A DNA stretch of 64,000 nt from Euglena gracilis (Eukaryota). The stretch lies in the NCBI GenBank assembly GCA_039621445.1, contig CP154954.1:43937847-44001846 (forward strand). Reading direction: 5' to 3'. Below the pieces are notes generated by a model that ran no database searches, was not told the DNA's origin, and saw nothing but the letters and a program-made list of their open reading frames with translations. Shown here one piece after another: positions 26,721 through 63,462 of the stretch; position 1 is the first letter of the stretch, and each line of letters opens with the position of its first letter. The position numbers were made by a program, and so were the translations under genes.

Positions 26721-26765
<45 letters not shown>

Positions 26766-26795: not shown

Positions 26796-29700
26796 TGCCA
26801 TACGGCAGTCAGTATTTCTGTTAAAACAGAAATGAAGGGGTACGCTTATTATTTCTATTCGAGGGCCGTCCAGGAGATGTTGTACCCCAGGGTCCTTCTT
26901 GGCTGACCCATCCGTTTTGGGTAATTCTCATAAAATCGATTTTTTTCAAGGCCAAAAAACGGCCAAATCCTGTGGGAACCCCTTTTTGCCACCCCCGTAC
27001 GGGCCCCAGAACGGTCCGGAGGGGCCGGGGGTATGTGGGGTGTATACAGGCCACTTGGGGGTCCCCCATGGTTGGTTTGGGTCCCCGGGTGGGTCCGTGC
27101 AGTTCCCCATCCGTTTTGGGTAATTTTCAAAAAATCGATTTTTTGGCCCCGGCAAGGCTGAAAAACGGCCAAATCCTGTGGGAACCCCTTTTTGCCACCC
27201 CCGTACGGGCCCCAGAACGGTCCGGAGGGGCCGGGGGTATGTGGGGTGTATACAGGCCACTTGGGGGTCCCCCATGGTTGGTTTGGGTCCCCGGGTGGGT
27301 CCGTGCAGTTCCCCATCCGTTTTGGGTAATTTTCAAAAAATCGATTTTTTTGGCCCCCGCAAGGCTAAAAAACGGCCAAATCCTGTGGGAACCCCTTTTT
27401 GCCACCCCCGTACGGGCCCCAGAACGGTCCGGAGGGGCCGGGGGTATGTGGGGTGTATACAGGCCACTTGGGGGTCCCCCATGGTTGGTTTGGGTCCCCG
27501 GGTGGGTCCGTGCAGTTCCCCATCCGTTTTGGGTAATTTTCAAAAAATCGATTTTTTGGCCCCGCAACGCGGAAAAACGGGCAAATCCTGTGGGAACCCC
27601 TTTTTGCCACCCCCGTACGGGCCCCAGAACGGTCCGGAGGGGCCGGGGGTATGTGGGGTGTATACAGGCCACTTGGGGGTCCCCCATGGTTGGTTTGGGT
27701 CCCCGGGTGGGTCCGTGCAGTTCCCCATCCGTTTTGGGTAATTTTCAAAAAATAGATTTTAAGACCCCCACAAGGCTAAAAAACGGCTAAGTCCTGTGGG
27801 AACCCCTTTTTGCCACCCCCGTACGGGCCCCAGAACGGTCCGGAGGGGCCGGGGGTATGTGGGGTGTATACAGGCCACTTGGGGGTCCCCCATGGTTGGT
27901 TTGGGTCCCCGGGTGGGTCCGTGCAGTTCCCCATCCTTTTTGGGTAATTTTCAAAAAATCGATTTTTTGGCCCCCGCAAGGCTGAAAAACGGCCAAATCC
28001 TGTGGGAACCCCTTTTTGCCACCCCCGTACGGGCCCCAGAACGGTCCGGAGGGGCCGGGGGTATGTGGGGTGTATACAGGCCACTTGGGGGTCCCCCATG
28101 GTTGGTTTGGGTCCCCGGGTGGGTCCGTGCAGTTCCCCATCCTTTTTGGGTAATTTTCAAAAAATCGATTTTTTGGCCCCGGCAAGGCTGAAAAACGACT
28201 AAGTCCTGTGGGAACCCCTTTTTGCCACCCCCGTACGGGCCCCAGAACGGTCCGGAGGGGCCGGGGGTATGTGGGGTGTATACAGGCCACTTGGGGGTCC
28301 CCCATGGTTGGTTTGGGTCCCCGGGTGGGTCCGTGCAGTTCCCCATCCGTTTTGGGTAATTTTCAAAAAATCGATTTTTTGGCCCCCACAAGGCTAAAAA
28401 ACGGCTAAGTCCTGTGGGAACCCCTTTTTGCCACCCCCGTACGGGCCCCAGAACGGTCCGGAGGGGCCGGGGGTATGTGGGGTGTATACAGGCCACTTGG
28501 GGGTCCCCCATGGTTGGTTTGGGTCCCCGGGTGGGTCCGTGCAGTTCCCCATCCGTTTTGGGTAATTTTCAAAAAATCGATTTTTTGGCCCCGGCAAGGC
28601 TGAAAAACGGCTAAGTCCTGTGGGAACCCCTTTTTGCCACCCCCGTACGGGCCCCAAAACGGTCCGGAGGGGCCGGGGGTATGTGGGGTGTATACAGGCC
28701 ACTTGGGGGTCCCCCATGGTTGGTTTGGGTCCCCGGGTGGGTCCGTGCAGTTCCCCATCCGTTTTGGGTAATTTTCAAAAAATCGATTTTTTGGCCCCGG
28801 CAAGGCTGAAAAACGGCTAAGTCCTGTGGGAACCCCTTTTTGCCACCCCCGTACGGGCCCCAAAACGGTCCGGAGGGGCCGGGGGTATGTGGGGTGTATA
28901 CAGGCCACTTGGGGGTCCCCCATGGTTGGTTTGGGTCCCCGGGTGGGTCCGTGCAGTTCCCCATCCGTTTTGGGTAATTTTCAAAAAATCGATTTTTTGG
29001 CCCCGGCAAGGCTGAAAAACGGCTAAGTCCTGTGGGAACCCCTTTTTGCCACCCCCGTACGGGCCCCAAAACGGTCCGGAGGGGCCGGGGGTATGTGGGG
29101 TGTATACAGGCCACTTGGGGGTCCCCCATGGTTGGTTTGGGTCCCCGGGTGGGTCCGTGCAGTTCCCCATCCGTTTTGGGTAATTTTCAAAAAATCGATT
29201 TTTTGGCCCCGGCAAGGCTGAAAAACGGCTAAGTCCTGTGGGAACCCCTTTTTGCCACCCCCGTACGGGCCCCAAAACGGTCCGGAGGGGCCGGGGGTAT
29301 GTGGGGTGTATACAGGCCACTTGGGGGTCCCCCATGGTTGGTTTGGGTCCCCGGGTGGGTCCGTGCAGTTCCCCATCCGTTTTGGGTAATTTTCAAAAAA
29401 TCGATTTTTTGGCCCCGGCAAGGCTGAAAAACGGCTAAGTCCTGTGGGAACCCCTTTTTGCCACCCCCGTACGGGCCCCAAAACGGTCCGGAGGGGCCGG
29501 GGGTATGTGGGGTGTATACAGGCCACTTGGGGGTCCCCCATGGTTGGTTTGGGTCCCCGGGTGGGTCCGTGCAGTTCCCCATCCTTTTTGGGTAATTTTC
29601 AAAAAATCGATTTTTTGGCCCCGGCAAGGCTGAAAAACGGCTAAGTCCTGTGGGAACCCCTTTTTGCCACCCCCGTACGGGCCCCAAAACGGTCCGGAGG

Positions 29701-32700
29701 GGCCGGGGGTATGTGGGGTGTATACAGGCCACTTGGGGGTCCCCCATGGTTGGTTTGGGTCCCCGGGTGGGTCCGTGCAGTTCCCCATCCGTTTTGGGTA
29801 ATTTTCAAAAAATCGATTTTTTGGCCCCGGCAAGGCTGAAAAACGGCTAAGTCCTGTGGGAACCCCTTTTTGCCACCCCCGTACGGGCCCCAGAACGGTC
29901 CGGAGGGGCCGGGGGTATGTGGGGTGTATACAGGCCACTTGGGGGTCCCCCATGGTTGGTTTGGGTCCCCGGGTGGGTCCGTGCAGTTCCCCATCCGTTT
30001 TGGGTAATTTTCAAAAAATCGATTTTTTGGCCCCGCAAGGCTGAAAAACGGCTAAGTCCTGTGGGAACCCCTTTTTGCCACCCCCGTACGGGCCCCAAAA
30101 CGGTCCGGAGGGGCCGGGGGGATGTGGGGTGTATACAGGCCACTTGGGGGTCCCCCATGGTTGGTTTGGGTCCCCGGGTGGGTCCGTGCAGTTCCCCATC
30201 CGTTTTGGGTAATTTTCAAAAAATCGATTTTTTGGCCCCGGCAAGGCTGAAAAACGGCTAAGTCCTGTGGGAACCCCTTTTTGCCACCCCCGTACGGGCC
30301 CCAGAACGGTCCGGAGGGGCCGGGGGTATGTGGGGTGTATACAGGCCACTTGGGGGTCCCCCATGGTTGGTTTGGGTCCCCGGGTGGGTCCGTGCAGTTC
30401 CCCATCCGTTTTGGGTAATTTTCAAAAAATCGATTTTTTGGCCCCGGCAAGGCTGAAAAACGGCTAAGTCCTGTGGGAACCCCTTTTTGCCACCCCCGTA
30501 CGGGCCCCAGAACGGTCCGGAGGGGCCGGGGGTATGTGGGGTGTATACAGGCCACTTGGGGGTCCCCCATGGTTGGTTTGGGTCCCCGGGTGGGTCCGTG
30601 CAGTTCCCCATCCGTTTTGGGTAATTTTCAAAAAATCGATTTTTTGGCCCCGCAAGGCTGAAAAACGGCTAAGTCCTGTGGGAACCCCTTTTTGCCACCC
30701 CCGTACGGGCCCCAGAACGGTCCGGAGGGGCCGGGGGTATGTGGGGTGTATACAGGCCACTTGGGGGTCCCCCATGGTTGGTTTGGGTCCCCGGGTGGGT
30801 CCGTGCAGTTCCCCATCCGTTTTGGGTAATTTTCAAAAAATCGATTTTTTGGCCCCCGGCAAGGCTGAAAAACGGCTAAGTCCTGTGGGAACCCCTTTTT
30901 GCCACCCCCGTACGGGCCCCAGAACGGTCCGGAGGGGCCGGGGGTATGTGGGGTGTATACAGGCCACTTGGGGGTCCCCCATGGTTGGTTTGGGTCCCCG
31001 GGTGGGTCCGTGCAGTTCCCCATCCGTTTTGGGTAATTTTCAAAAAATCGATTTTTTGGCCCCGCAAGGCTGAAAAACGGCTAAGTCCTGTGGGAACCCC
31101 TTTTTGCCACCCCCGTACGGGCCCCAGAACGGTCCGGAGGGGCCGGGGGTATGTGGGGTGTATACAGGCCACTTGGGGGTCCCCCATGGTTGGTTTGGGT
31201 CCCCGGGTGGGTCCGTGCAGTTCCCCATCCGTTTTGGGTAATTTTCAAAAAATCGATTTTTTGGCCCCCGCAAGGCTGAAAAACGGCTAAGTCCTGTGGG
31301 AACCCCTTTTTGCCACCCCCGTACGGGCCCCAGAACGGTCCGGAGGGGCCGGGGGTATGTGGGGTGTATACAGGCCACTTGGGGGTCCCCCATGGTTGGT
31401 TTGGGTCCCCGGGTGGGTCCGTGCAGTTCCCCATCCGTTTTGGGTAATTTTCAAAAAATCGATTTTTTGGCCCCGGCAAGGCTGAAAAACGGCTAAGTCC
31501 TGTGGGAACCCCTTTTTGCCACCCCCGTACGGGCCCCAAAACGGTCCGGAGGGGCCGGGGGTATGTGGGGTGTATACAGGCCACTTGGGGGTCCCCCATG
31601 GTTGGTTTGGGTCCCCGGGTGGGTCCGTGCAGTTCCCCATCCGTTTTGGGTAATTTTCAAAAAATCGATTTTTTGGCCCCGGCAAGGCTGAAAAACGGCT
31701 AAGTCCTGTGGGAACCCCTTTTTGCCACCCCCGTACGGGCCCCAGAACGGTCCGGAGGGGCCGGGGGTATGTGGGGTGTATACAGGCCACTTGGGGGTCC
31801 CCCATGGTTGGTTTGGGTCCCCGGGTGGGTCCGTGCAGTTCCCCATCCGTTTTGGGTAATTTTCAAAAAATCGATTTTTTGGCCCCGGCAAGGCTGAAAA
31901 ACGGCTAAGTCCTGTGGGAACCCCTTTTTGCCACCCCGTACGGGCCCCAGAACGGTCCGGAGGGGCCGGGGGTATGTGGGGTGTATACAGGCCACTTGGG
32001 GGTCCCCCATGGTTGGTTTGGGTCCCCGGGTGGGTCCGTGCAGTTCCCCATCCGTTTTGGGTAATTTTCAAAAAATCGATTTTTTGGCCCCGGCAAGGCT
32101 GAAAAAAGGGTTAAGTCTTGTGGGAACCCCTTTTTGCCACCCCCGTACGGGCCCCAGAACGGTCCGGAGGGGCCGGGGGTATGTGGGGTGTATACAGGCC
32201 ACTTGGGGGTCCCCCATGGTTGGTTTGGGTCCCCGGGTGGGTCCGTGCAGTTCCCCATCCGTTTTGGGTAATTTTCAAAAAATCGATTTTTTGGCCCCCG
32301 CAAGGCTGAAAAACGGCTAAGTCCTGTGGGAACCCCTTTTTGCCACCCCCGTACGGGCCCCAGAACGGTCCGGAGGGGCCGGGGGTATGTGGGGTGTATA
32401 CAGGCCACTTGGGGGTCCCCCATGGTTGGTTTGGGTCCCCGGGTGGGTCCGTGCAGTTCCCCATCCGTTTTGGGTAATTTTCAAAAAATCGATTTTTTGG
32501 CCCCCGCAAGGCTGAAAAACGGCTAAGTCCTGTGGGAACCCCTTTTTGCCACCCCCGTACGGGCCCCAGAACGGTCCGGAGGGGCCGGGGGTATGTGGGG
32601 TGTATACAGGCCACTTGGGGGTCCCCCATGGTTGGTTTGGGTCCCCGGGTGGGTCCGTGCAGTTCCCCATCCGTTTTGGGTAATTTTCAAAAAATCGATT

Positions 32701-33112
32701 TTTGGACCCTTTACACATGGGCTGCACGGCCCCGAAAACGCTTAAGTCGACAAATTTGGGGTCCGACCCCCAGTTGCACCCACCTACGTGCAGTCGCGAC
32801 CCACGACCCATGCCATACAATGGGGGGACCCCATGTACTTGGGAGACTTTTACATCAGATCGGGTCGACCGACTGTCATATCCCGGGAAAACTCTTTATT
32901 ATTATTTGTAGTAGTAGTAGTAGTAGTAGTACTTAGGAGTCCCCTATTTTTGGCCCGTGGCGGCTCCTACCGGGTCGGTCGGACCGAAACTCCGACACCT
33001 ACCCCCCCGTTTGGGGTCTGGCCACTCTCAATGCACCAGGTCCCGAACCCTGGCGGAACAGCGTACCTATACCTACTGGGGTGAACCACCCCCCGAATAG
33101 AAATAATAAGCG

Positions 33113-33114
<2 letters not shown>
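26796..33114 (-). mobile_element. Non-autonomous Helentron/DINE-1-like element, copy 1
   Basis: 21-bp inverted repeat, terminal at 33094-33114 and subterminal at 26841-26861. End hairpins ATTTCTGTT-AA-AACAGAAAT (26814-26833) and TGCC-ATAC-GGCA. Internal (TAG)n and central tandem repeats. Confidence 0.7.
26908..32704 (+). repeat. Tandem array of a ~206-bp unit, ~28 near-identical copies
   Basis: Unit ccatccgttttgggtaattttcaaaaaatcgatttttt...gggtccgtgcagttcc. ORF track recurs every 205-207 bp. Confidence 0.97.
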
Positions 33115-33176
<62 letters not shown>

Positions 33177-33199
33177 GTAATAATGATGATGATGATAAC

Positions 33200-33240
<41 letters not shown>

Positions 33241-33243
33241 GTG

Positions 33244-34634
33244 TGCCATACGGCAGTCAGTATTTCTGCTAAAACAGAAATGAATGGGTACGCTTATTAT
33301 TTCTATTCGAGGGCCGTCCAGGAGATGTTGTACCCCAGGGTCCTTCTTGGCTGACCCATCCGTTTTTGGGTAATTTTCAAAAAATCGATTTTTTGGCCCC
33401 CGCAAGGCTGAAAAACGGCTAAGTCCTGTGGGAACCCCTTTTTGCCACCCCCGTACGGGCCCCAGAACGGTCCGGAGGGGCCGGGGGTATGTGGGGTGTA
33501 TACAGGCCACTTGGGGGTCCCCCATGGTTGGTTTGGGTCCCCGGGTGGGTCCGTACAGTTCCCCATCCGTTTTGGGTAATTTTCAAAAAAAGCGATTTTT
33601 TGGCCCCCGCAAGGCTGAAAAACGGCTAAGTCCTGTGGGAACCCCTTTTTGCCACCCCCGTACGGGCCCCAAAACGGTCCGGAGGGGCCGGGGGTATGTG
33701 GGGTGTATACAGGCCACTTGGGGGTCCCCCATGGTTGGTTTGGGTCCCCGGGTGGGTCCGTACAGTTCCCCATCCGTTTTGGGTAATTTTCAAAAAATCG
33801 ATTTTTTGGCCCCCGCAAGGCTGAAAAACGGCTAAGTCCTGTGGGAACCCCTTTTTGCCACCCCCGTACGGGCCCCAGAACGGTCCGGAGGGGCCGGGGG
33901 TATGTGGGGTGTATACAGGCCACTTGGGGGTCCCCCATGGTTGGTTTGGGTCCCCGGGTGGGTCCGTACAGTTCCCCATCCGTTTTGGGTAATTTTCAAA
34001 AAATCGATTTTTTGGCCCCCGCAAGGCTGAAAAACGGCTAAGTCCTGTGGGAACCCCTTTTTGCCACCCCCGTACGGGCCCCAGAACGGTCCGGAGGGGC
34101 CGGGGGTATGTGGGGTGTATACAGGCCACTTGGGGGTCCCCCATGGTTGGTTTGGGTCCCCGGGTGGGTCCGTGCAGTTCCCCATCCGTTTTGGGTAATT
34201 TTCAAAAAATCGATTTTGGACACTTTACACATGGGCTGCACGGCCCCGAAAACGCTTTAGTCGACAAATTTGGGGTCCGACCCCCAGTTGCACCCACCTA
34301 CGTGTGCAGTCGCGACCCGGGACCCATGCCATACAACGGGGGGACCCCCTGTCCTTGGGAGACTTTTACATCAGATCGGGTCGACCGACTGTCATATCCC
34401 GGGAAAACTCTTTATTATTATTTGTAGTAGTAGTAGTAGTAGTAGTAGTAGTACTTAGGAGTCCCCTATTTTTGGCCCGTGGCGGCTCCTACCGGGTCGG
34501 TCGGACCGAAACTCCGACACCTACCCCCCCGTTTGGGGTCTGGCCACTCTCAATGCACCAGGTCCCGAACCCTGGTGGAACAGCGTACCTATACCTACTG
34601 GGGTGAACCACCCCCCGAATAGAAATAATAAGCG

Positions 34635-34636
<2 letters not shown>
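33244..34636 (-). mobile_element. Non-autonomous Helentron/DINE-1-like element, copy 2 (~4 central repeats)
   Basis: Same ends and hairpins. Inverted repeats at 33289-33309 and 34616-34636; 206-bp units at ~33355-34218. Confidence 0.7.
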
Positions 34637-34690
<54 letters not shown>

Positions 34691-34713
34691 TAATAATAAT
34701 AATAACAAAAATA

Positions 34714-34799
<86 letters not shown>

Positions 34800-35169
34800 G
34801 ATGATGATGATAACAAATCGCTGAATCCAACGTAATTCTGTTTATCACCATATGACTGTCCAGCACTCCCAGCAAAATTGGTCCAAAGTGGCATCTTTGA
34901 TGGTCACACTCATGAAAATTGCCAAATCAAATTTGGGTGGATTTGAGGACAAATTCATGCGGGGGGGGGGTTGCTTTGGTGGGTCAGCCCAGGGTTATCA
35001 TTGGGGGTGGTTTGTTCATGGGGGAGGTTTACAAGCGGGGCAGGGTTCAATGGGCTCCGCCTTCTCCAAGGGGCATAGCCCCATTTTGGTTGGGAATGGC
35101 GCAGCCATTCCCAACCCCCCCCCCCCCCGCCAAGCCCTCCCCTTCCCCCCTCCGGGCCGGCCTGGGGGG

Positions 35170-38100
35170 CGCCCCACGCCTTCTTCAGCCGGGCCGCCAG
35201 GGAGCGGTACGCATCGGCCAGCTCGGCGGGCTCCAGGAAGCCGTCGTTCTCCTCCAGCACGTCTGCCAGCGCCGCCCGGCCCTCCTCCCCAGGGCTGGCC
35301 GGGACAGGCTGGGGGGGGGGGGCGCCGGGGCAGGGGGTTCGTACCGTTGTGGGGAGAAAGCACGGGGCCATCACATCACATTGGACCAAAACCCACAGGG
35401 AAAGATTCGGCAGTTCTCGGCGGGAGAAGGTCGGCATCGGGGTAAAAAAAAAAGTGATTCCTTTTCTTGGACCACTGGCCATCCAACCAGCGGGCATCAC
35501 TCAACGACCCTGGGGGGGGGGGCATGTGTGGGAATCCCTGATGGGGGGGTCTGGACCCCGCCTCCCAACACGGAGGGGGGGTTGGTCCGAACCCCTCCAA
35601 CCTCGAAACGCAGAAATCTCAGCGAGATAGGCATGCCTGGCTTTTAGGTTTGACAAATGCCACCCCACCACCACTTTTCCCGCTGTTGGGGTGCGGACCC
35701 TGGCAGGGTCCCCCCGACCGGCTCCCCCCCATGGTAGGGGGGGGGGGGTAAAGTGGCAGGGGGGGTCTGGACCGGCCCCCTCAGATGTTGGGAGGGTGTC
35801 CATCCCCCCACCCTCTCCTTGGCCGGTTCCAGAAATAATGAGCAATTTTCGGTTTTAAAAAATCGGGTTTTTTTTGCATGACTGGCAGTTTTTGGGGCAT
35901 TTTTTTAGTTTCGATTTTTTTTGTTACCCTCTCCGAACGCCAACTGGGCCAGTTCCAGCCGAGGGTGCCTGTGGGGTCAGCCCAGTCCTTTTCCAGCCAG
36001 TCCATTGTCGACAGGTTTTGGGCAGGCACCTATGGCCACTTCCCATTTTGGTGCTCTGGTCGGCCCTGGTCGGCCCTGGTCGGCCCTGGTCGGCCCTGGT
36101 CGGCCCTGGTCAGCAAATAGTTGGCCATAGGTGGGGGTATCCTTCACAGAAAAAATGTGAAGGGAGGCAATGGTTTTCTGAATTGTCTCGCCAAGATCAA
36201 AAGGAAATGCCCCATAAGGCCTCCATTGGCAAGCACCTTCGGTCACCCACCCCTTTGGGCCCCGCATCGCCATGCATCGCCCTGCATCGCCCTGCATCGC
36301 CCTGCATCGCCCTGCACCACCCTGGAGCCATCCAATGGTGCCCTATAACCGAAGACCAAAATTCAGGCACACAAATACAGCAGGGGCACTGGAAGGGTAC
36401 TGCAAACACGACCACCTCACCCTGCAGCACCCGCAGCTCCTCCAGCCGGTCCCACCGCTGCCTCACCAGCAGCAGCAACCCCTGCCAGTGGTGCTTCTCC
36501 CGACATCGCAGCTTCCTCCACTGAAGGAGAGGACGCTAGTCAGCAAAGGCCTTTGGGGGTCACACTTCCCGGGGGTCCCGCTTCTTGGCCTCCAGCCAAC
36601 CTTCCTCGACATCCAACTCGCGACTTTGTGTATTAAATTCGCGGCTCGTTGGATGCCAATCCTTCCAAAGGAGCAGTATGAGCACCCTACACATGCGCAC
36701 ATGCGCACCCCACAAGCATTCTCGGATTCACATGCCCTACAAGCATCCACGGATGCACATGATTATGCACATGCCTACAACCCCAACTACAGTCGCCCGT
36801 TTATCCCACAACTTAAGATTCCCCCCATAACCTCCCTCTCTCACCAAAGCATCCACTCCAGGGAGTCACTCAGGGAAGGCCAGACGGGCCAGGGAGGAAC
36901 ATCGTCGACTCAGGTACGAAGCAAGCACCAATGTGGAGTCTGCACGCAGGTATGCAGCAGGGGCACGATACCTTCGGCTCCAGGGGAGTCACACGCCTCC
37001 CGGAGGGGGACAGAGAGGTCCAGCACAGCAGCAGAGGCAGAGGCATGGGCAGACATGAAGGGCATGCTGGAGTGGTCTGCGTGGGAGGGAGGGTGTACCC
37101 AGCAGTAGGGGCCCAAATATGGACCCCACTTCAGCCATCCAACAAAAAAGCATCGCCCAGCATCGGAACCCCACCTCTGTCTCCAAAAATCCAGCATCAC
37201 CCAGCATCGCCCAGCATCGCCCTGCATCGCCCAGCATCATCAGAGGTGCTTGTTCCAGAGGGAAAGCTGCCGAATTCCTTCATCCATTCCCCTTCGGTCG
37301 GCCAACCACATGCAAGTCGGCCCTGGTCGGCCCTGGTCGGCCCTGGTCGGCCCTGGTCGGCCCTGGTCGGCCCTGGTCGGAACCCCCACCTACGGGGGTC
37401 CTGAAAATCATAGTCGCCCCTGGTCGGCCCTGGTCGGCCCTGGTTGGCCCTGGTCGGCCGTAGGTGCCTGGTTTTGGGCCTGGCCAATAAACCAAACATT
37501 CAACGGTGCGCCTGTGGCCAAACCCTGATGACAGGGAAGGTGGTTTTCATGGCTGGGGAATACCCCCCTGACATCAGGATGGTTTTGGGTTCGGTGGACA
37601 AGGACTGTTGAAAAATCCCTGTTTTCCCCGCGTTATTATTTTGTGGAAAACACTTAAAAAAACACACTTGGCTGGACCCAGGTTAAGCAACGCCCTGCCA
37701 TCCAAACGTAAAAAAAAAGTGTTTACTGGACCCCTTTCGCCTGAGGGCGGTGTTTGAAGAGCGCTGTCCTGATCAAAAAAAGTGCAGTTCCGGGGTTCCC
37801 GGTCAGCCCTGGGCCTCCCCGAAGGCCTTCTTCGCCTTCAGGTTGCCCTTCTTCTCCATCCCCTCCCAGAACTTGGAGGGAGGGCCCCCGCCGCGGAAGG
37901 CCAGCTGCCCCCCCCCCCGTCCGCAACTGCAGGATGCAGGACGAGGACGTGAGGACTGAAAAAGGCGACCCGCCCCCCACCCCCCCCCCACTGATGGGTT
38001 GGCTGATGTGGGTCCATAGCGGTCCGCATGCCCGTCCTCGGGACCCAATGCCATTTCAAAGTGTCCGCCGGGGTTGGCCCCAACCCCTCCCCCACCTCCA

Positions 38101-39994: not shown

Positions 39995-42080
39995 GAATAT
40001 CCCCCCCCGGGGGACCCATGCCCAGGGGGTGGGTGGGGGGGGACCCCCCGCAGTCTTAAAAAAAAGCCCTGGTTGGGAGGAGGGAGACACTGATGCAGCC
40101 CTGCCTCAGGTCAGCCAGCGACATCGTGCACGGCGGAGGGCGGCCCAAACGAAGCCGGGTTTAATGTCGATATCTGAGAACAGGAAGGCGGGATGGATGA
40201 GGGGTGGGGAGGGAGGGTTTTGAACTGGCAACAGCGTAGCACAGGATGCAAAACTGATGGCGTTGCATTTCTGTTATGTCCGGTTCCTCAGACCCAAATC
40301 TCTCTGATTCCCAGAACGTGGAGAGGCAGGGCCAAAGTGGTTCAAAAGCACACACGCACACACCCCAGGGACTGGGAGGCACAGAGACTTGCTGAGGACT
40401 CAGCAATGGTTACACTCATTTGCGGGCGACACCTTCTGCATTCCTGGGATTGTTTCACTCTGAGAATGCTGGATTTCCAGGCTGACTCTCCGGCTGGGTG
40501 CTGTGGAAACGAGGCAGAAACAAAGGGGAATGGCCCCCCCCAAAATTGAAGCAGAAGATTGTCGCACAGAGGTATAGCACAGTCAAATCCCACTGTCTTC
40601 AACACCTACAACGCCAACAAGAAAATACCCGCAATCTTCACGGATCTTCACGGAAGCGGCAGAGCAAGGAAGAATGCGACGGACATCCATGTGCAGCTGC
40701 ACACTACACCGTAGAGCAGAACTGTTCACTGTCCCCCTCCCTGCCCCTCTGACTTTCCTTTTCCTCCCTCTGGTAAAGGGAGCCGATGGAAAGAGGGGCT
40801 AGGGACAGGGCTGGACGGGAAGATTTGGTGTTGGACCCCCCACCACCATCCAAAACAGTGCAAGCAAACTTTCCTTTGGCGCCGAAAGCTTTGAAGGAAA
40901 AAAGTTTGATATGGAAATTGGTGCCCCTGGGGAAAAAAGGGGGGGTCCCACCCACCCACCCACCCGGGGGGGGGGGGGTCCCACCAACCACGATGACAGA
41001 ATGAGGGCGGGGGGGATGCCTACCCCGCATGGGGTTTCTTGGTTCCTCGTCCAACTCTGGCTGGGGCACGGGTGATGTCGCCGCAGGAGGGGAAAAACAC
41101 CCTGCCGGGAAGGGAGGGCCACACAGCGCCGGCTACGGATGCAGGCCAGCCCTGCACCCCGCTGCCAGCGCCCGGACCAGATCGGTGCATCCGGACGGGG
41201 CGACGAGGTCCGCACCTCCATCCTTTCTCCGCAGTTGCACATCGCACAACAATGGCAGCAAAGAAAACGAAAAGTGCCGGGAATAAGTCCAGAACTTCAA
41301 AACATCCATTTCTTTTTTGACAGGCAACCAACAATGAAGACCACTCAAACCCTGGGGATGCCTGGCCTCTTGGGGTGGGTGGGCGGGCTGGGTTGATTCT
41401 CAAAATGGACGGCTGGGGTCAGGCCTTCATCCCTTTAGATGCACTTCATCCCCCTGGGGGTGCAACAAATTCCATCCAGAACCAGAGGCAGACGTTTTCA
41501 AACAAAACATCACACGGTTTCCAGCAGCAGGCAGGGGTACCAGCTTGGCCTGGTCATGTCTACGGCCCCGCAATGGCGGTAGCGCCGTGACTGGGACTGT
41601 GGGCTGTGGGCTGTGGGCTGTGGGCTGTGGGCTGTGCAATGGAGGCGGGCCCCACATGGATCGAGGAAGTGCCCCCCACCCAACCTGCGGCACACACCGG
41701 TGCCTGGGGGAGAGGAACAGACCCCCCACAGTGGTGCCCACACCGGACGTCCTGTGAACAGAGGGAGGGGGCTAAGCAAGCAAGAAAGCAAGACAAACGT
41801 CGGTGGCCAGAGGTGGCCAGGAAGGATATAACATGTAACTTGTAACTTGTATAACAGGTCGGAAGACAGCGGTCCTGTTGCTGCCAGGGCACGGCGCGGG
41901 CTGGGGCCACGGCTGGAGACGCCGCGTGTTACCTTGGCGACGACTCCGGGCTGGTGCGAAATTGTTGAAACGGTCTGTGGACACAGGCAAGGGATTATGG
42001 GACAAGGTTGACAAGGCGTTCCGCCTGTGAAGCCAGCTGTTAGGTCACACACCCCACCCACACACAACCACACCCACATC

Positions 42081-43449: not shown

Positions 43450-44310
43450 CATACATACATACATACATACATACATACATACATACATACATACATACAT
43501 ACATACATACATACATACATACATACATACATACATACATACATACATACATACATACATACATACATACATACATACATACATACATACATACATACAT
43601 ACATACATACATACATGCATGCATACATACATGCATACATACATACATACATGCATGCATGCATACATACATACATACATACATACATACATACATACAT
43701 ACATACATACATACATACATACATACATACATACATACATACATACATACATACATACATACATACATACATACATACATACATACATACATACATACAT
43801 ACATACATACATACATACATACATGCATAAATACATGCATGCATGCATGCATGCATACATACATACATACATACATACATACATACATACATACATACAT
43901 ACATACATACATACATACATACATACATACATACATACATACATACATACATACATACGGCAGCTCCCAACTATAGGGCCCCCCCCCAAAAATCGTATTT
44001 TTGTGTTAATGATGGAATAGGGTTAGGTGCGCGACTTAGGCTTAGGGTTGGCCTAACTTGTACACCTAACACCCGCCTATAAGTTAGGCCTAACCCTAAG
44101 CCTAAGTCGCGCACCTAACCCTATTCCATCATTAACACAAAAAAAATATTTTTTTGGGGGGGCCCTATAGTTGGGAGCTGCCATACATACATACATACAT
44201 ACATACATACATACATACATACATACATACATACATACATACATACATACATACATACATACATACATACATACATACATACATACATACATACATACAT
44301 ACATACATAC
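43450..44310 (+). repeat. (TACA)n microsatellite interrupted by a hairpin element
   Basis: Directly visible. Confidence 0.95.
43959..44182. mobile_element. Palindromic GGC-terminated MITE with telomere-like motifs
   Basis: ~105-bp inverted arms with a ~15-nt loop. TTAGGG-like motifs in the left arm and CCCTAA-like motifs in the right. Confidence 0.75.
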
Positions 44311-44961
44311 ACACACATACATTCATACATACCCCCCCATCTTGCCCAACGATCACTAAATATCGCTACTGACCGGGGGGGGGGTCGCTATTTTGGCCAA
44401 ATATCGCTACTGACCGGGGGGGGGGGTCGTTAGACAAGACCGGGGTCAATTTTTTTTCTCCCGCTTCGTCCCAAGGTGAACAAAAGGTGAACAAAATGGC
44501 CAAAAGTGGTCAAAAGGGGGGAAAAAGTGGAGAAAAGCAGTCAGAAATGGCTTAAAATGGCCTCAAATGTGCAAAAAAAAATAGCCAGATGCAGCCAAAA
44601 ACTGGTATAAATGAAGCAAAAATGCATCCAAAGCAGCCAAAAGTGGTTTAAATTGCCAAATGCAGCCCAGAGTGGCCAAAAGTGGCCGAAAGTGGCCAAA
44701 AGTGGTCGAAAATGGCCAAAAACATGGCCAAAAAAAAGCCAAAAGTTGCTGATTTGCATGAAAACAGGCAAAAAAAAGAATAGAAGTCAACTGCACATGG
44801 GATACTAGTGGAAACTTGTGAAAATTGCAAACGCGAACGTCTGGAAAAAAAGATCACCTGGAAAAAGACTGCTGCTGACCGGGGGGGGGGTCGTTGGACA
44901 AGGCCGGTCGTTGGACAAGGGGGGGGGGGAGGTACATGCACACATACACATACACATACAC

Positions 44962-45195
<234 letters not shown>

Positions 45196-45870
45196 ATGGC
45201 AGCCGTGTTTCCCTGGCGCGGTGGGCCCGAAATGTCGAAAAGTGGGACCCGGGTCCCACCATTCGACCCTCCCCCCCCCCCCTGATCCAACTGGTTTCCG
45301 GGCGACGGATTTGGAGAGGATTCCCGCTTAATTTTCGGAATAGGATTAGGGTTAGGATCGGGCCGAGAATCGGCCAAATTTGGGGCAAATGAGGCCGGAA
45401 GTTAGGTCCCCCTTTCGGAAGATTTTTGACACATTTTTGTCTAAAAATGTTCGAAACTAAATTCGGCCCGAATTCGTCCGGACGGCGGCCTAACTTCCCC
45501 AAAATGGGTGCCCGACGGCCTGCCGGCCGTAACTCTAACCCCATCCCAATCAATAACCCCAAATTTCTTCGATGCTCGGTCCCGGGTCCCACCATACTGT
45601 ACGACCCCCTCCCCCTGCTCCAATTAAACGACCTGCGGGCTGTTTAGTTGGAGGCTGCCACATACATGCATGCATGCATGCATACATAAATACAAACATA
45701 TATTGCATGGTATTTATGGCGCCTGTCCGGGGTTTGGTGAGGGCGGTCCGCAGCTTGCATGTGTGGGATTGTCATTCAGGTTGGGTTGCTTGCTACGTCC
45801 TTCGTTGCACAAAATGCCAAACCCCTGCAGAGATATCGGTAAATGCATAGGCCCAAAGATGGACGCCGGC

Positions 45871-46312
45871 CAGGGTTCGATATAAGGACAGGTGGGGGGG
45901 GGGTGGTCCGGACCCCCCCCCTGCGGGCCAGGAGGGGGGGGGGGGGGGGGGTGGGGGGGGGCCCCCGCCCGCACCTAAACAGGTGCGCGGTCAGGGTGGC
46001 CGAATTTTCGGCCCGGCGCGAAGCGCCGGGCCGAAAATTTTTGACCCCCCAAAACGACCAAAAGTGCCATTTTGGGCACTTTTGGGGCAAAAATGTGCCA
46101 AAAATGCAAAAAATTTTCGTCGCGAAGCGCCGGAGGAAAAATTTGACCCTTTTTGGGGGGGGTCAATTTTTGCCCCCGAGGGTCGGTCCGGACCCCCCTT
46201 GCAGGTGGGGGGGGGGTGGTCCGGACCCCCCCCTGCGGGCCAGGAGGGGGGGGGGGTGGGGGGGACACCCCCCCCACCTAAACCATGTACGCCCTCCTTA
46301 TATCGAACCCTG
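45871..46312. mobile_element. hAT-like MITE (CAG..CTG, 8-bp TSD)
   Basis: TIR CAGGGTTCGATATAAGGA / TCCTTATATCGAACCCTG. TSD ACGCCGGC at 45863-45870 and 46313-46320. Empty site at ~52597. Confidence 0.88.
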
Positions 46313-46782
46313 ACGCCGGCACCACGGGTGTGAATGACTCAGGTGCTCAAACTTAACTTGAGTTTGTTCATGAGGACATGTAATATGAGACGAACATGGC
46401 AGCTGGGTTTCGGGTGGGGTTGCTCTACAGCAAAAGACCACAATTTATTATGGGGCTAAAAATTTTGGCCAATCGTTCGCATTTTCGAGGCTGGGCAAGA
46501 CCATAAAAGCAGGGGATCGGGATACTTCAGGAACGTGCGCATGCCAAGTTTGCCACGTTCTTCCCTTGCTCCCACTTGTGGCCAGCACTGCACCTGGCGG
46601 AGTGGGTCACCTGGCTGTCGTAGGAGGGGAGTCGGTCGGGGGGAACACGGAGCCGGAGCAGACCAAGCAGCTCACAAACCCATCCTGGTGACCAAGGTCA
46701 GGGTCCGGCAATAGGGAGGGGGATGCTGAGGGGGGGGGAAGATAGCGCACACCCACCCACCCACCCACCCACGTAGACACAT

Positions 46783-46832
<50 letters not shown>

Positions 46833-47171
46833 CACACGCACACACATACACATGACCCATCGTCGACAACAAGGAGAGACTGGAGGCTCTCTGTCCTGAG
46901 GGACTGAAAAGGGGGTGGGCGGACCGCAGCGGACCGCAGCGGACCTGCTGGGCGGACCGCAGCGCGTGTGGCAAAGGGCCAGAGGCCAAAGCGGCATGGT
47001 TGCAGCCAAAGGGAGGGAAATGGAGGCGGCCAGGAGGGAGTGACACTGGGGTGTGACATATGCGTGGCATATGCGGGGGTTGCCGTGCTGGGTGAACGAC
47101 CAAACGATGTGGCTCTGCAATCAGTTGGGATTGTTTGCTGCCGTTTTCCTACCTGTGCAGAGTGCCATCCA

Positions 47172-47885
47172 CAAGGATGGATATTGATATTGGGTTGGGT
47201 GGGGGGTCCCGATAAAACCCGATTTTTCGACCCCCCCCCCGATATCCACGATAAATCCGAGGAAAACCGATATGGAGGAAAATTTTAGGCCAACCTTGGG
47301 GCATTTTGGGTCATGAAGCCACTATTTGCTCATTTTCCAATCCACTTTGGCAATTTTGGGTCGTCTTGCGCTCCTTTTGGGCAATGTGGGCTATTTTTGG
47401 CTTTTTTTTGGTCCATCAAGGGTTCCTTTGGGCCACTTCTGGCAAGTTTTGCAAATTTGGGCAATTTTAAGCAATATTCAGGCATTTTGGGCATTTTTGG
47501 CCATTTTTTTGGCTTATTTTTTTTATGTGGGTCCATTTTAGGTCAATTCAAGCTATTTTTGGGCCGGTTTGGCCCATTTTGGGCCACTTTTGCCCTTTTT
47601 GGCCACTTTGCAATATTTTGGCCTGTATTTTTGAACATTTTGCGGTTTAAATTCTGCATTTGGGTTGGTGATTCCTGATTTGGTGCTGAACTCCCAACTT
47701 GATGACATCGATACTTTTTTTCTTCAAATTTTGCTGTTCGGAGATTCCTAATTTGGTTATAACAGGGACCAAAACCAAGGGAAAAGTGCATGAACCCCCC
47801 AATAAAGCCGATATTTTTTTCGGACCCAATATAATCGATAATTTCGATAAAGCCGATATGGGCCGATAACCAATATCCATCCTTG
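47172..47885. mobile_element. P-like MITE (CAAGG termini, 7-bp TSD)
   Basis: TIR CAAGGATGGATATTG. TSD ccatcca/ccgtcca. Empty site at 42945-42960. Confidence 0.85.
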
Positions 47886-47944
47886 CCGTCCACCTGTGAG
47901 GGGGTGCGTGGTCAGCGGAGCCCACCCTTGCATGGTATATATGC

Positions 47945-48439
47945 GGCAAAGCCAATTCTCTGCCCCCCCCCCACCCGGGGGGGCCAGTGGTTGTACCTAC
48001 TGGGGACTTCGGCTGCCCAGGTGAACTACTGGGTCCCCCACATTTTCCCAGGGAAATCCGTGCACCGGAGGAAATTTTTTTTGAAGATGGAGCAGGTTTT
48101 GGGGTTAATTTCCGGAATAGGATTAGGGTTAGGGTAGGGTTAGGGTTAGGGGTTTGGGGTTAGGGGGAATTAGGCAGTTCGAGCAAATTTCGGCCCAGTT
48201 TCGACCGAATTTTAGGCCGAATTTTGGGCCCCCTTTTTTCATCCAATTTCGACCGAACTTTTTTCCGGAATCGTAACCCTAACCCAAATCCAAATCCTAT
48301 CCCTACCCCAAAAATTAACGGAAACACTGTACATCGCGAAACCCAAAAATTGGAGTTGGTGAAAGAAGCGGGACCCCCACCCCCAGGTTAAACCACTGCC
48401 CCCCCCCGGGGGGGGGGGGGGCAGAGAATTAGCCTTGCC
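47945..48439. mobile_element. GGC-terminated MITE with internal (TTAGGG)n-like tracts; relatives at 42471+ and 45198-45659
   Basis: ~55-bp TIR ggcaaagccaattctctgcccc / ggggcagagaattagccttgcc. TTAGGG run at 48120-48165 and CCCTAA-like run at 48274-48310. AT-repeat flanks. Confidence 0.75.
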
Positions 48440-48561
48440 ATGTGCATATATATATATATATATAAACATATATATAGAGTATATGTGCATATATATATAT
48501 ATATATAAACATATCTGTACATGTATGTTTTCTATTATTCATATGGCAGGCGGGTAGCAAG

Positions 48562-49653
48562 CAGGGGGGGGAGAAACTGCACACGGGCCGGTAAAAAACT
48601 GGACTGCAAAAAAACTGCAAAAAAAAACTGCAAAAAAAACTGCACTTCAACAAAAAAGAACAATAAACAAGCTGAAATGGTGTGCATATGCAAAACAACG
48701 TAAATTGCGACCACAGGAGCACGCCCCAATTCACCTAACTTTTTTGCACAGCTTTGGAGCCGATGACGACAAAAATGGAAGCACTCAATCAAGGTGCACT
48801 ATGCATGGCTTTTCATGCACTGAAATGCAAGTCATGTGTTTGGATGCCGGGTCACACCGGTTTTCCTGCACATGCCAAGATGCCAAACGGTTTCCTTTCT
48901 AAATATGGGGAAAATGCACATTTACCCATACACATGAATTTTAAATGCTTTCATTTCTTGCATGGGGATGTTCAGTTTGGAACTTTCGGTCTTTGAAGCA
49001 TTTAGATTGTGTGACATTTGGCCACAATGCTTGGGGCAAGACCCAATCTTCTTCAGGAGCTTGTGCTCCATTGCGCAATCGCGAATTTCGAAATCCTCAA
49101 CTCCAACTTCAGCCAAAATTTGCACAAAAAAGAAACAATTTTTGGATTTAGTCTCTAGGAATCCCAACGTAAATAGTTGAATCTGCTCAGGAGTGTGCAA
49201 ATGGCGCTTGCCAAAATAAGCATCGTGACATCTGTCACCACAGGCTGGAGATGGAGCAATTTTGGTTGGGGAAAAATTGTGGTTTTGTCACCAAAACAAT
49301 CTGTTTTTTTTTTGGAATGGTGGCTACACCAATCTCTGTTGTATTCAGAGGCAAGACAGCTGGCAAGACAGTTTGGGGCAAGACAATTGGTGGGATAACT
49401 GTGGACAACACAACTCGTGAACAGATGATGCTTTTTTTTGAGAAACACCCTTCAAACATAGAATCCAGCACCAAAAAAAAAAACAGACGCCTCAGGTTTC
49501 CTCAAAACTGGAATCAAAAAAACTGCAAAAAAAACTGCACGTGTGCAGTTTTTTCAGAAAAAAGCTGCAAAAAAAAATTGCAAAAAAACCCAAAACGTGA
49601 AACTGCAAAAAAAACTGCAAAAAAAACTGCACGGTGCATGTTTCCCCCCCCTG
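48562..49653. mobile_element. CAGGG..CCCTG MITE with 7-bp TSD TAGCAAG
   Basis: TIRs, plus a single-copy empty site ggcgggtagcaagccc at 43045-43060. Confidence 0.85.
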
Positions 49654-52600
49654 TAGCAAGCCCCCCTGGGGCCCTTGCTATTCACGACCAGGGACCTTAA
49701 CGACGTCCTTAAGGACCCCCCCCCCTGGGGGGTCCAGCCTCCGGCTGAAAAACAGGCTGCTGGCTGGAAACGAGCTGCTGGCTGGACCCCCCCCCGGGGA
49801 GATGGGGGGGTCGCTGAGCTCTTATCCCTTTATGGGTAAGAGCGAAGCTCAATTCTGGGCAAAAGGGGGGGTCGGAACCCCCCCCTTCCCCCCCCCCTGG
49901 GTCGGGGCCACCTCAGGAACCGGCGGATTATCACCATGATCACGGCTCCGTTCCCGAAATTTGTCTTCAGTCACGAGCGACTGGATTTCTAGTTTCCGAA
50001 TCACCTCCGTTTGACCCCCAACTCCCCGCCAGGCCCGAGTTATCCAGCCGCGAAGGGGTCCAAACTGGGTAGGATTGGCCCGCCCTCCCCCTCTTCCGGC
50101 TCTGCCATTTCGCCGGGGTCCAAAAATCGGTCAAAAAATCGCTTTTTCAAAAATATCTGGACATTATCTCCGGAAGTGTCCCACTGACAAAATGTACCCT
50201 CGGAGGCCCTCTATCACCCCGTTCGCCATTTTGGCCGCCGACATGCATGCAAGCCAACTCCGGCCAAGCATGCATTTTTGCGGCCCAAAACGGCCATTTT
50301 GGGGAGTTTTTGGGGCCGTCTTTTGCTCAAAAAATCGGGGTTTCCAAAACATCTCGACAATGAAGCAAAATCAAAGAAAAATGAAGCCCTTCGAATGCCC
50401 TGTCCAACCATACTTTCCCCTCGACTGTTCGTGCAGCCCGAGTTACAGCCATTTTCCGGCCAATTTTGGCCCATTTCTGGGGCCATTTTGGGTCGTTTTT
50501 GGGGGCGAAAAAAACGATGTTTCCAAAATATCTCGAAAATGAAGCAAAATCAAAGAAAACGTCCGGAGACCCAAATTAAAGCCCTTACAGTGCCCCATCT
50601 AAGGGCATTTTAATTTCCCCGCAACTCCCCGCCTGGCCCGAAATATGGCCGATTTACAGCCAAAAACAGCACGGCAGGGCTTGTGACTCAGCCGTTTTCG
50701 GCACCTTTTGGGTCCAAAAATCAATTTTTCTAAGATTGCTCAAAAAATGGTGGGGAATCAAAGGAAATGTCCAGAGACCTGAATTGAAGCCCTTAAAATG
50801 CCCCATCTAACAGTGTTTTGATTTCCCGGCAACTCCCCACCCAGCCCAAGTTACGGCCATTTTTCGGCCGATTTTGGCCATTTTGTGCAGTTTTGGCCTG
50901 TTTTGCCTTAGCCCTTTTGACCATTTTCGGTAAAAAAAAAAGTCGAAAAAAAATCAAAAAAAAATTGTCTGAAACCGTGTTTTTTGGCCTCCCAGCCCGG
51001 AAAACCGGTTTTGAGCCGAAATTAAGTGTTTTTCGCCCCCCCCCCAGCACCCCCCCCCCCGTTTTTGGCCCGAAACCAATGGATTTTGGGTTAAAAATAA
51101 AAATGGGTTAAAAAAACAGGTCGAAAAAGTCGAAAAAATCAATTTTTTTTGCCTGGAACGATGTTTTTTGGCCTCCAGGACCCGGAAAACCTGGTTTTCA
51201 GCCGAAAATGAGCGACCCCCCCCCACCCGGCCCCCGTTTTTTGCCCGGAAAGCCATGGATTTTGGGTCATTTCTGGGTCAAAAAAAGGCGAAGAAAATTG
51301 AAGAAAAGGGGTGGGGAGGGGTATGGTGGGGTCTGTGCTCTAATATTGTGAGTTACCGTAAATTGCAAGTGTGAAATTTGTAAATCATAAATTACGCAAA
51401 GTTGCAATGCTAGTATTTTCGGTCTTCCATTACGTGCAAGTCCGATTAAGAGCTCAGCGCTATTCAAAATCTGGTCCGGGGCTTGAGCGGGCTGGGCTGG
51501 GCTGGGTCGATGAGAAGCAAACTGTTCTAAACCATTTTTGCCTTCTTGACATTTTGATGGACGGAGCTGGATCAAGGTTGGGGGGCTGTGATGGAGGAAG
51601 CTGTGGTGAGGGGAAAAATGCAGGGACAGGTGAGCTGGGCAGCCCAGTTGGCTGGCCAGGCTGCGGCCGGCTGGCCTGGCCTTCGACCGGGATGGACGCG
51701 ACTTTATTTCACTCGACCCCCCCTCCAAGGGGGGGGCAAGCCCCAAATTGGGCTGCTGGCTGGATTTGAGCTGCTGGCTGGATGGACCCCCCCAGGGGAT
51801 GGGGTACCCTCCAGCTTAAGAAATCCCTTGTTACTCACGACCCCGCACTGGGTGGTTGGAGTTACTGATTGCTGAAGGCGCAGAGGGTTAGGGTTAGGAC
51901 CGGCTGGCCGGATTTCTGCCCCCGCACGCAGGTTGCGCATCCGGCCTCCCTGCGCGGGTGGCCTCATAACAATGCCTGCATCGCAAATCCTAGCACCCGC
52001 CCTATTCCTGTCACTCCAAAGGCTAGGAGGACCCAGTCCCCGAACCGTTCGACGGGTTTTACTGCCAATCTGCCACCTTTGGGAATCCCGCGGCTGAGGC
52101 CAGGCCAGATGCGCATTTCACGCGGGGGCGAAAATCCAGTTGGCCGGTCCTAACCCAAACCCCTGTGCTTTCAGTAAGCAGTAACACCAACCACCCTCCG
52201 ACCCACACCCGCTTGCGAAATATACATACATACATACTTACATACACACATATGCACATACGTACATGCATGCATACTTATATACATACACACACACACA
52301 CAGACAGACAGACAGACAGACAGACATTCAAATAGACACAGACACACGGTCAGGCAGGCAGGCAGGCAGGCAGCCAGGCAGGCAGGCAGGCAGGGAGACA
52401 GACAGACAGACAAACAGAAAGACAGACAGACAGACAGAAAGACAGATATATGGCGCCTGTCCGGGGTTTGGTGAGGGCGGTCCGCAGCCTGCATGTGTGG
52501 GATTGTCATTCAGGTTGGGTTGCTTGCTACGTCCTTCGTTGCACAAAGTGCCAAACCCCTGCAGAGATATCGGTAAATGCATAGGCCCAAAGATGGACAC

Positions 52601-54226
52601 TGGCACCACGGGTGTGGATGACTCAGGTGCTCAAACTTAACTTGAGTTTGTTCATGAGGACATGTAATATGATACGAACATGGCAGCTGGGCTTCGGGTG
52701 GGGTTGCTCTATAGCAAAAGACCACAATTTATTCACGGGGCTAAAAATATTGGCCAACCGTTCGTATTTTTAAGGCTGGGCAAGACCAAAAAGCGGGGGA
52801 TCGGGATACTTCAGGAACGTGCGCATGCCAAGTTTGCCACGTTCGTCCCTTGCTCCCACTTGTGGTCCAGCACTGCACCTGGCGGAGTGGGTCACCTGGC
52901 TGTTGTAGGAGGGGAGTCGGTCGGGGGGACACAGAGCCGGAGCAGACCAAGCAGCTCACAAACCCGCCACTCGCACTGTGGCCGGCGGCCGGGTGGGGAA
53001 GGCAGGGAAAAGTGAGCCGTAAACCTATACCCGCCCCCCCCCGGGCTATCGTCGTGTGACAAATTGGGCAGCACGGAGGGGGGTGGCAATTTCCCGGGGT
53101 GACAATCTGGCCGGCACAGAGGGGGGCGTCAATTGCCCGGGGGCGTCAATTGCCCACCCATATAAGCCACATTAACACCAAATGACCAACAACACCATCT
53201 GAAACACAAGTGAATGGAGCAAAAATGCAGCTGTGATCGTGATACTTTGCAGAGCGTTTGGTATGCGAAAGCTCTCAGCACGCTGTAGCAAAACAGAATA
53301 TCAATTGAGTCGTGTCGGCGAAAAGAGAGTTCACAGTGCAATACTGCAAACGGGGGTGATAAATTGGGCAGCACGGAAGGGGGTGACAATTTCCCGGGGT
53401 GACAAATTGGCCGGCACAGCCAGGGGTGACAATTGCCTGGGGGCGTCAATTGCCCGGGGGAGGGGGGGATCAATTACCCGGGGGGGGGGGGGGGGGGGAG
53501 GTGTATGACGCCCGGCAGTCCCCCCTGTGACTAAAGGTGCGTCCCTGCCTGCACTGTGGTTTGCCAGCAAAGCTGTGCCTGTAGCGGTGCCAACTTGGGG
53601 AGACGTTCCCCCTCCATGCCCAACGACTGGTAACCTCTGTCCTCTGGTGGCGGGTGGGCGCTCATGCCTTGTGAGATACAGGGTTCTGGCCAAAAAAGGT
53701 GTCCTCCTTCCAAAGGTGGTCAGTCGCCACAGCCCCCCAGCCTTGACCAAGCTCCATTCATCAAAATGTCGAAAATGGCGAAAATGTATTAGAAAATTTT
53801 GTTTTTCATCGACCCAGCCCAGCCCAGCCCCCTCCAGCCCCTGACCCCCCTGTGCCCCCTGGGGGGGGGGGTCCAGCCAGCAGCTCATTTCCAGCCAGCA
53901 GCCTTTTTGCCAGCCGGAGGCTGGACCCCCCCCCCGGGGCCCTTAATAAAACCCCTGCCCCCAATCCTGGTGAGACAGGGGGGGTTCAGTCCAAAAAAGC
54001 ACTTCCACAGACTGGCCAGACCTCCAACAAAGTGTCCTTCAACCGGGGGTGGGGGGTCTTAGACATCGAGGGTCAATTACGTTTCAAATGCGCTTCATCG
54101 CAGGAAGTTTCACTGGCACCGCGGCGATGATGCTTTTGCGGCAGAGCGGTTTTCCTTCGGGGAAACCCGCCCCGGGACAACCCGGTCCGTGTCAGACAGC
54201 CGGCCGTGCCGCCGGGCGGGAAAGGG

Positions 54227-63462
<9,236 letters not shown>

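Follow-up and report, generated by a model that had tools for sequence, protein, structure and literature searches.

A 442-bp inverted-repeat element and its empty site

We analysed a stretch of 64,000 nucleotides of the Euglena gracilis genome (GenBank assembly GCA_039621445.1, contig CP154954.1, positions 43,937,847 to 44,001,846 of the forward strand), called the window below and numbered from its first letter. It holds a pyrophosphatase gene, a CEP19-like gene and a 442-bp inverted-repeat element, and our subject is the relation of this element to the nonconventional (NC) introns of euglenids. An initial annotation had described an element with CAG…CTG inverted ends, a perfect 8-bp target-site duplication and an empty site near 52597, and this description was borne out in all its parts: the ends pair throughout, the duplication copies are identical and the empty site aligns without a gap. 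The features concerned are as follows.

45871–46312, no strand assigned: inverted-repeat element, classed as a transposable element of the miniature inverted-repeat kind (MITE), 442 bp, non-coding, with subterminal repeats made of G/C runs and an AT-rich centre
45871–45888, plus strand: left terminal inverted repeat, CAGGGTTCGATATAAGGA, 18 bp, starting with CAGGG
46295–46312, minus strand: right terminal inverted repeat, ending in CCCTG, complementary to the left one at 18/18 positions
45863–45870, no strand assigned: left copy of the target-site duplication, ACGCCGGC, 8 bp
46313–46320, no strand assigned: right copy of the target-site duplication, ACGCCGGC, identical to the left copy at 8/8 positions
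52597–52604, no strand assigned: empty site in the paralogous block, ACACTGGC, in the exon of the pyrophosphatase gene that holds 3′ untranslated region (UTR), spanned by RNA reads
52446–52966, minus strand: paralogous block B, matching 45712–45870 plus 46321–46682

With up to three mismatches, CAGGGTTCGATATAAGGA matched the window twice, at the two ends of the element (0.04 matches expected; two or more in 0 of 100 shuffles). As a control for chance, we collected identical non-simple 8-mers at distances of 50–6000 nt from each other, 7,626 pairs in all, and scored the 16 nt inside each pair for inverted complementarity. The ACGCCGGC pair was the only one to reach 16/16, and the best score in a slid control, with the right arm moved by 5 nt, was 13/16. 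The five open reading frames (ORFs) that span the element contain no Pfam family, and Rfam returned no matches. The predicted RNA fold of the element has a minimum free energy of −315.3 kcal/mol (z = −9.05; equalled by 0 of 100 shuffles); in it the 18-nt ends are paired, and pairing extends into the palindromic GCCGGC that forms part of the duplication.

The element clearly belongs to a very abundant family, with position 46312 as the right boundary. When contigs of DNA run X1 were aligned over 44340–56700, 35 of them had loose ends right after 46312; agreement beyond that base was just 0.39, so the copies lie in many different flanks. DNA word depth, a rough sign of copy number that is inflated by G-runs, was about 1.55 million in the bin of the element and 1,102,981 at 46305, against 39–126 in unique bins. 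The element is thus short and non-coding, has inverted ends and a duplication, is missing from an empty site and exists in many copies with the same ends, as a MITE would. At 46305, a CpG in the right end repeat, 46% of the DNA word depth has A (CpA), which fits the decay of methylated CpG among family copies. In a scan of metagenomes, the 18-nt end gave eight single matches in unrelated contexts of GC content 0.30–0.60, each without a partner end, and we took them as chance.

The insertion lies in a duplicated copy of the pyrophosphatase 3′-UTR exon. By self-BLAST, 45712–45864 matches 52446–52598 at 98.0% identity and 46312–46681 matches 52596–52965 at 94.6%. After removal in silico of the element and one duplication copy, the filled copy aligned to 52446–52975 with a gap-free junction. 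The homology of the two blocks stops at 46682/52966, and beyond this end no pyrophosphatase exons were found on the side of the filled block. Minus-strand RNA occurs near the element, at about 46.69–47.23 kb. From the loose end of one contig a joint between 46950 and about 41897 might be surmised, which would put the MITE inside a 5-kb intron; the match is not free of mismatches, and the acceptor departs from the NC code given below.

The empty site ACACTGGC differs from ACGCCGGC at two positions, 52599 and 52601, both by CpG-type transitions. At these positions DNA run X1 has A and T, as in the window (0 of 86.6 with the alternative letters), and all nine RNA reads (seven of run X21, two of X24) have G and C, the letters of the duplication. 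We considered that these reads might be transcripts of the filled copy from which the element had been removed as RNA, and did not adopt this explanation: position 52617, the next difference between the blocks, 16 nt away, is absent from the variant table, and an allele or strain variant fits better. The cleanest read with G and C at 52599/52601 has only two other differences. The reads probably derive from an allelic or strain variant of block B in which both CpGs are retained, and in that case an uninterrupted ACGCCGGC target is attested.

The 450-bp difference between the blocks might also be read as double-strand-break repair with filler DNA, or as a deletion between 8–9-nt repeats in block B. 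The direct repeat does come to 9 nt (GACGCCGGC) with the terminal G included, since the left copy is preceded by the base that also ends the element, a G. Break repair also has a precedent: gapC intron 4 of E. agilis, the one documented newly gained, strain-specific NC intron, is bordered by eight-nucleotide direct repeats, which Milanowski et al. 2016 ascribed to double-strand-break repair (PMC4770533). Neither process predicts an insert that has perfect inverted ends and comes from a very high-copy family with a shared end point, and we regard both as very improbable here.

Introns of the two genes and the NC splice code

The pyrophosphatase exon 62876–63187 (minus strand) matches eukprot:EG_transcript_1590 (P0001, 744 aa) at 97% identity, and residues 303–744 of P0001 map onto 63.45–54.23 kb with 86–100% identity per exon. 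The CEP19-like protein eukprot:EG_transcript_14797 (P0121, 385 aa) maps to ten minus-strand exons from 39333 to 16177, at 89–100%. Taken together, exons of the two transcripts agree with the window at 96–100%, which fits Euglena gracilis or a very close relative. The stop codon of the pyrophosphatase lies in exon 54218–54361, and the exon ending at 52977 is therefore 3′ UTR. Three introns were seen directly in RNA reads. One, with the joint 54654>56354 (25+24 reads in X21, 17+0 in X24), is GT…AG on the minus strand; the other two are NC introns.

54362–54532, minus strand: NC intron of the pyrophosphatase gene, GCC-CAG…CTG-CTCAG|G; RNA joint 54360>54532 (X21 15+23 reads, X24 16+0)
52978–54217, minus strand: NC intron in the pyrophosphatase 3′ UTR, GCC-CGG…CCG-GCCAC|A; RNA joint 52977>54218 (X21 16+11 reads, X24 12+0)

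With P0001 and P0121 together we mapped 16 NC introns and one conventional intron, choosing each NC cut, out of those equivalent at the protein level, by the longest +4/−6 stem. All 16 NC introns then have such a stem, of 4–12 bp, and a purine directly after the intron, and six of them are CAG…CTG. They agree with the code 5′-N3CDG-/-CH′GN5-6|R, which was derived from knock-in experiments (PMC12501133), including its CGG-CCG variant. The 3-nt donor spacer is GCC in seven of the 16 introns (18632–63300) and ends in C in 12, so N3 is not free sequence in this species.

The initial annotation had also proposed that the 442-bp insertion has the geometry of an NC intron, which holds for one strand. 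On the plus strand, where the insertion reads ACGCC|GGC-CAG…CTG-ACGCC|G, every term of the code (PMC12501133) is present, and removal by this code would leave a single ACGCCGGC. On the minus strand the base after N5 is C. Element and duplication together therefore share with the NC introns of the literature (Milanowski 2014/2016; PMC12501133) the 3 nt before CAG, the 5 nt after CTG, the purine and the paired ends on the plus strand, and differ from them in that this copy lies outside known exons (putative intron) and breaks the purine rule with N5 on the minus strand.

A repeat-family element as an intron of the CEP19-like gene

An insertion of another family lies in a coding exon. We scanned the window for CAG…CTG pairs whose ends match at 11 or more of 14 positions; among 229 non-simple pairs, the flanking octamers agree at 8/8 in two and at 6/8 in five. 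One of the 6/8 pairs coincides with intron 3 of the CEP19-like gene, and its end family is dispersed in the window.

35285–37814, minus strand: intron 3 of the CEP19-like gene, GCC-CAG…CTG-GGGAG|G, equal to an inverted-repeat element (35290–37811) plus 8 nt
37795–37811, minus strand: 5′ inverted repeat of the intron element, CAGGGCTGACCGGGAAC, with an exact 17-mer copy at 1996–2012
35290–35306, plus strand: 3′ inverted repeat of the intron element, CAGGGCTGGCCGGGACA
37812–37819, minus strand: left duplication-like octamer, GGGAGGCC, 6/8 against its partner; direct repeat at the junction 7 nt
35282–35289, minus strand: right duplication-like octamer, GGGAGGAG
1996–2491, no strand assigned: copy of the CAGGGCTG end family, 496 bp, flanks CCAACAAG/CTGACAAG, 6/8
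40806–41059, no strand assigned: copy of the CAGGGCTG end family, 254 bp, flanks GCTAGGGA/GCTGGGGC, 6/8

The 17-mer CAGGGCTGACCGGGAAC occurs at five sites of the window with up to three mismatches (0.31 expected; five reached in 0 of 100 shuffles). When the copies of the CAGGGCTG end family are aligned at CAG, the first 17–20 nt are common to them and no likeness is left upstream of CAG. The flanks agree at 6/8 in all three copies of the window; no obvious reading frame runs across those of 1996–2491 and 40806–41059.

Upstream of the intron element the minus strand reads in codons …AAG GCC TTC GGG GAG GCC, and the unspliced frame stops after AQG; downstream it reads GGGAG GAG GGC CGG…. If cuts are placed 3 nt ahead of CAG and 5 nt past CTG, the two are joined in frame as …GGG GAG | GAG GGC…. 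This is the protein that is found: P0121 reads …KKAFGEEGRAALADVLEENDGFLEPAEL… over intron 3, its junction AFGE|EGRAAL (KKAFGE|EGRAAL) agrees without a mismatch, and both flanking exons match at 100%. To judge from this protein, the intron is absent from mature RNA and a cut in the NC register is compatible. Nine cuts would give the same protein; only that of the NC register has a stem (8 bp). The mRNA keeps the right-hand letters at octamer positions 7–8, which places the cut no later than position 6, the predicted 5|6 included. The expectation that exonic insertions are spliced within the duplication is thus realised by an element other than the one for which it was voiced, with a cut at position 6 or earlier and with GC…AG ends that leave the machinery ambiguous.

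A nested family and the likeness to hAT elements

A further CAG…CTG element is nested within this intron.

36023–37470, no strand assigned: nested CAG…CTG element, 1448 bp, inside intron 35285–37814, ends CAGGCACCTA(T/C)GGCC, with subterminal (CTGGTCGGCC)n arrays
36015–36022 and 37471–37478, no strand assigned: perfect 8-bp duplication of the nested element, GTTTTGGG

Its ends, at up to two mismatches, have two matches, the sole ones in the window, a number reached in 0 of 100 shuffles. The window therefore contains two independent CAG…CTG families with mismatch-free 8-bp duplications (45863/46313 and 36015/37471) and three end families in all, CAGGGTTCGATATAAGGA, CAGGGCTGACCGGGAAC and CAGGCACCTATGGCC. 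Another candidate, 20609–24438, with 8-bp flanks and ends agreeing at 12/16, was rejected: the slid control reached the same score, and the candidate spans CEP19-like exons.

Transposons of the hAT superfamily have ends of the form YARNG and the target preference nTnnnnAn, and subterminal tandem repeats are typical of transposase binding sites. The three families begin with CAGGG, CAGGC and CAGGG, which is compatible with the end consensus. Non-autonomous elements of the hAT (Ac/Ds) type are also resembled in the 8-bp duplication, the CAGGG inverted ends, the subterminal repeats of the nested element and the nesting itself. There are differences: the 442-bp element is GC-rich, with long runs of G and C, and not AT-rich; no transposase partner was seen among the ORFs scanned; and the three target octamers do not fit nTnnnnAn. 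From the likenesses we infer a hAT affiliation.

A 165-nt core of the 442-bp MITE (45997–46161) recurs at 22142–22317 with 77.5% identity, within a different inverted-repeat element. The latter (22040–22470) has the inverted ends CCCTATGTCCAACGACC and is situated in intron 19158–22730.

Origin of the 3/5 splice register

MITE-like elements were proposed as the source of NC introns when no transposable element had been identified in euglenid genomes (PMC3935182, 2014), and the idea was restated with direct repeats counted at 84.4% of introns (PMC12501133). CAG and CTG have been termed inverted ends, with duplication-like repeats at the junctions (PMC11282704). The available parts of PMC6221363, PMC11170887, PMC12621601 and PMC12455990 contain nothing more specific. 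Already in print, then, are the idea that MITE-like elements gave rise to NC introns, the reading of CAG and CTG as inverted ends and the duplication-like repeats (PMC3935182, PMC11282704, PMC12501133). In the full-text literature searched, which excluded subscription journals and supplements, we found no link between the 3+5 spacers and an 8-bp duplication, no assignment to a superfamily and no named Euglena MITE family; the 8-bp/hAT arithmetic alone appears to be new.

We think it likely that the 442-bp sequence is a young member of a very abundant family of non-autonomous MITEs that move by cut and paste, most likely hAT elements, and that elements so built can persist in coding sequence as NC introns, as at least one in the window does. 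In the mechanism that we propose, a transposase encoded elsewhere would recognise the 18-bp CAGGG… ends and insert the element by an 8-bp staggered cut, which would give the duplication ACGCCGGC. The CAG…CTG ends and the 8-bp duplication would together be a ready-made NC splice signal, and any transcript through the insertion would therefore carry one. The inverted ends would pair, and the element would leave with one copy of the duplication (3+5=8) through cuts 3 nt upstream of CAG and 5 nt downstream of CTG, restoring the sequence that preceded the insertion. We infer that the 442-bp copy itself would be spliced in this way. The 3/5 register may have arisen because of 8-bp duplications: the spacers would be the two halves of the duplication of a hAT-like MITE, the NC machinery would exist to remove the element and one copy, and NC introns, hundreds of thousands in number, would for the most part be decayed insertions of such families. 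This broader, evolutionary claim is well motivated but unproven, and we advance it tentatively, as a possibility that falls somewhat short of even chances. It would offer a simple reason for spacers of 3 and 5 nt, namely that their sum equals the duplication, so that splicing repairs the gene exactly.

The nearest known parallel is that of the introner elements of Micromonas, Aureococcus and dinoflagellates (PMC11282704), which are likewise DNA transposons with inverted ends, whose duplication gives part of the splice signal and whose insertion into an exon makes an instant intron. Introners differ in their spliceosomal GT/GC-AG sites and 3–5-nt duplications, whereas here both cuts fall within copies of an 8-bp duplication and the CAG…CTG stem is non-spliceosomal.

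If NC introns descend from such insertions, similarity of the duplication type should exceed chance at their borders, as the initial annotation had suggested for young introns genome-wide. In the 16 NC introns of the window, the octamer preceding +4 was therefore set against the octamer following −6. Matches per intron, out of eight, were 1, 2, 2, 2, 3, 3, 3, 3, 3, 4, 4, 4, 4, 5, 6 and 6. The mean was 3.44/8, against 2.79 for pairs taken across introns (a mean as high as that observed in 524 of 20,000 permutations), and when the right octamer was slid from −6 to +6 the unslid register came top of the 13. There is thus a weak duplication-like excess across the 16 introns, which are a small sample.

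Several observations weigh against the transposon reading. In the same comparison, the slid register −6 scores 3.31, close to the unslid 3.44. Thirteen of the 16 introns match at 4/8 or less in the duplication register; the earlier remark that the local introns retain no clear duplication is right for these and fails for three (two at 6/8, one at 5/8). Ends recur elsewhere in the window for only one of the 16 introns. The sum 3+5=8 would be expected by chance in about one of nine spacer combinations. GCC as N3 in 7/16 introns indicates spacers under a constraint of their own, and not merely decayed duplications. All genes found lie on the minus strand, on which the 442-bp insertion provides a purine only with N6, and the local transcripts are of that strand (X24 joints 12/0, 16/0 and 17/0). 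This copy is non-coding; no splice joint crosses it among the 15 joints listed of 790, and no protein does. Intron 35285–37814, in the NC register, is also GC…AG, and the ordinary spliceosome may remove it. Finally, Pfam revealed no transposase family in the 48 single ORFs of the window that were scanned, only the pyrophosphatase and one weak CEP19 match, and the hAT label therefore comes solely from the 8-bp duplication and the CAGGG ends.

Several of these points would also suit a plain MITE that has nothing to do, causally, with NC introns. On that view hAT elements often have CAG ends and 8-bp duplications in any case, and their agreement with 3/5 would be a coincidence; intron 35285–37814 would be an old intron that caught repeat ends, or a GC-AG spliceosomal one. 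The non-coding position of the copy, the absence of a joint across it among those listed, the ends of 15/16 NC introns that are not repeated in the window, the weak duplication signal with its near-equal register at −6 and the GC…AG ends all suit this explanation. It does not account for a repeat family whose ends fall exactly at +4 and −6 of an intron, with the flanking repeat exactly in the 8-nt register, for flanks at 6/8 in all three copies of that family, or for the published new NC intron with 8-nt repeats (PMC4770533). We consider the ordinary-MITE explanation unlikely, and descent by transposition the better account.

NC introns might instead be mobile as RNA and spread by reverse splicing or by re-insertion of an excised circle, with the direct repeats left by that process. 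They are indeed reported to leave as full-length circles (PMC11282704). A perfect 8-bp duplication and 18-bp ends in non-coding DNA, together with a nested copy, are the signature of a staggered DNA cut, and the subterminal tandem repeats point to transposase binding sites. Spread through RNA seems to us a scarcely credible source of these elements, for which we retain DNA transposition.

The window supplies end sequences for three CAG…CTG families with 8-bp duplications, of which one has a proven empty site and another functions as an intron within a coding exon. These three end families make the hypothesis of a MITE origin directly testable, genome-wide and in reporter genes.

Other features of the window

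A 10,157-nt NC intron of the CEP19-like gene (25011–35167) contains about 35 copies of a 206-bp satellite, 96–99% alike, at 26907–34217. The 17-mer at the 5′ end of this intron has 27 matches, with three mismatches, within the satellite array.

The first ~102 residues are common to the triple-pyrophosphatase protein EG_transcript_1590 and the CEP19-like EG_transcript_14797 (39333–37827), with about 95% identity, and the two diverge four codons before intron 35285–37814. This suggests a shuffled N-terminal module.

In exon 54533–54655, most RNA reads and X1 contigs deviate from the window at four positions (54578–54641), which points to a second allele or a near-identical paralogue that is more highly expressed. 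Many X1 contigs join 50073–50082 to 53477–53479, skipping about 3.4 kb; evidently a high-copy repeat elsewhere in the genome runs across the stretch that is split here. A 224-bp near-palindromic element at 43959–44182, with the ends GGCAGCTCCCAACTATAGGG, lies within a (CATA/CATG)n microsatellite, which makes its duplication unreadable.

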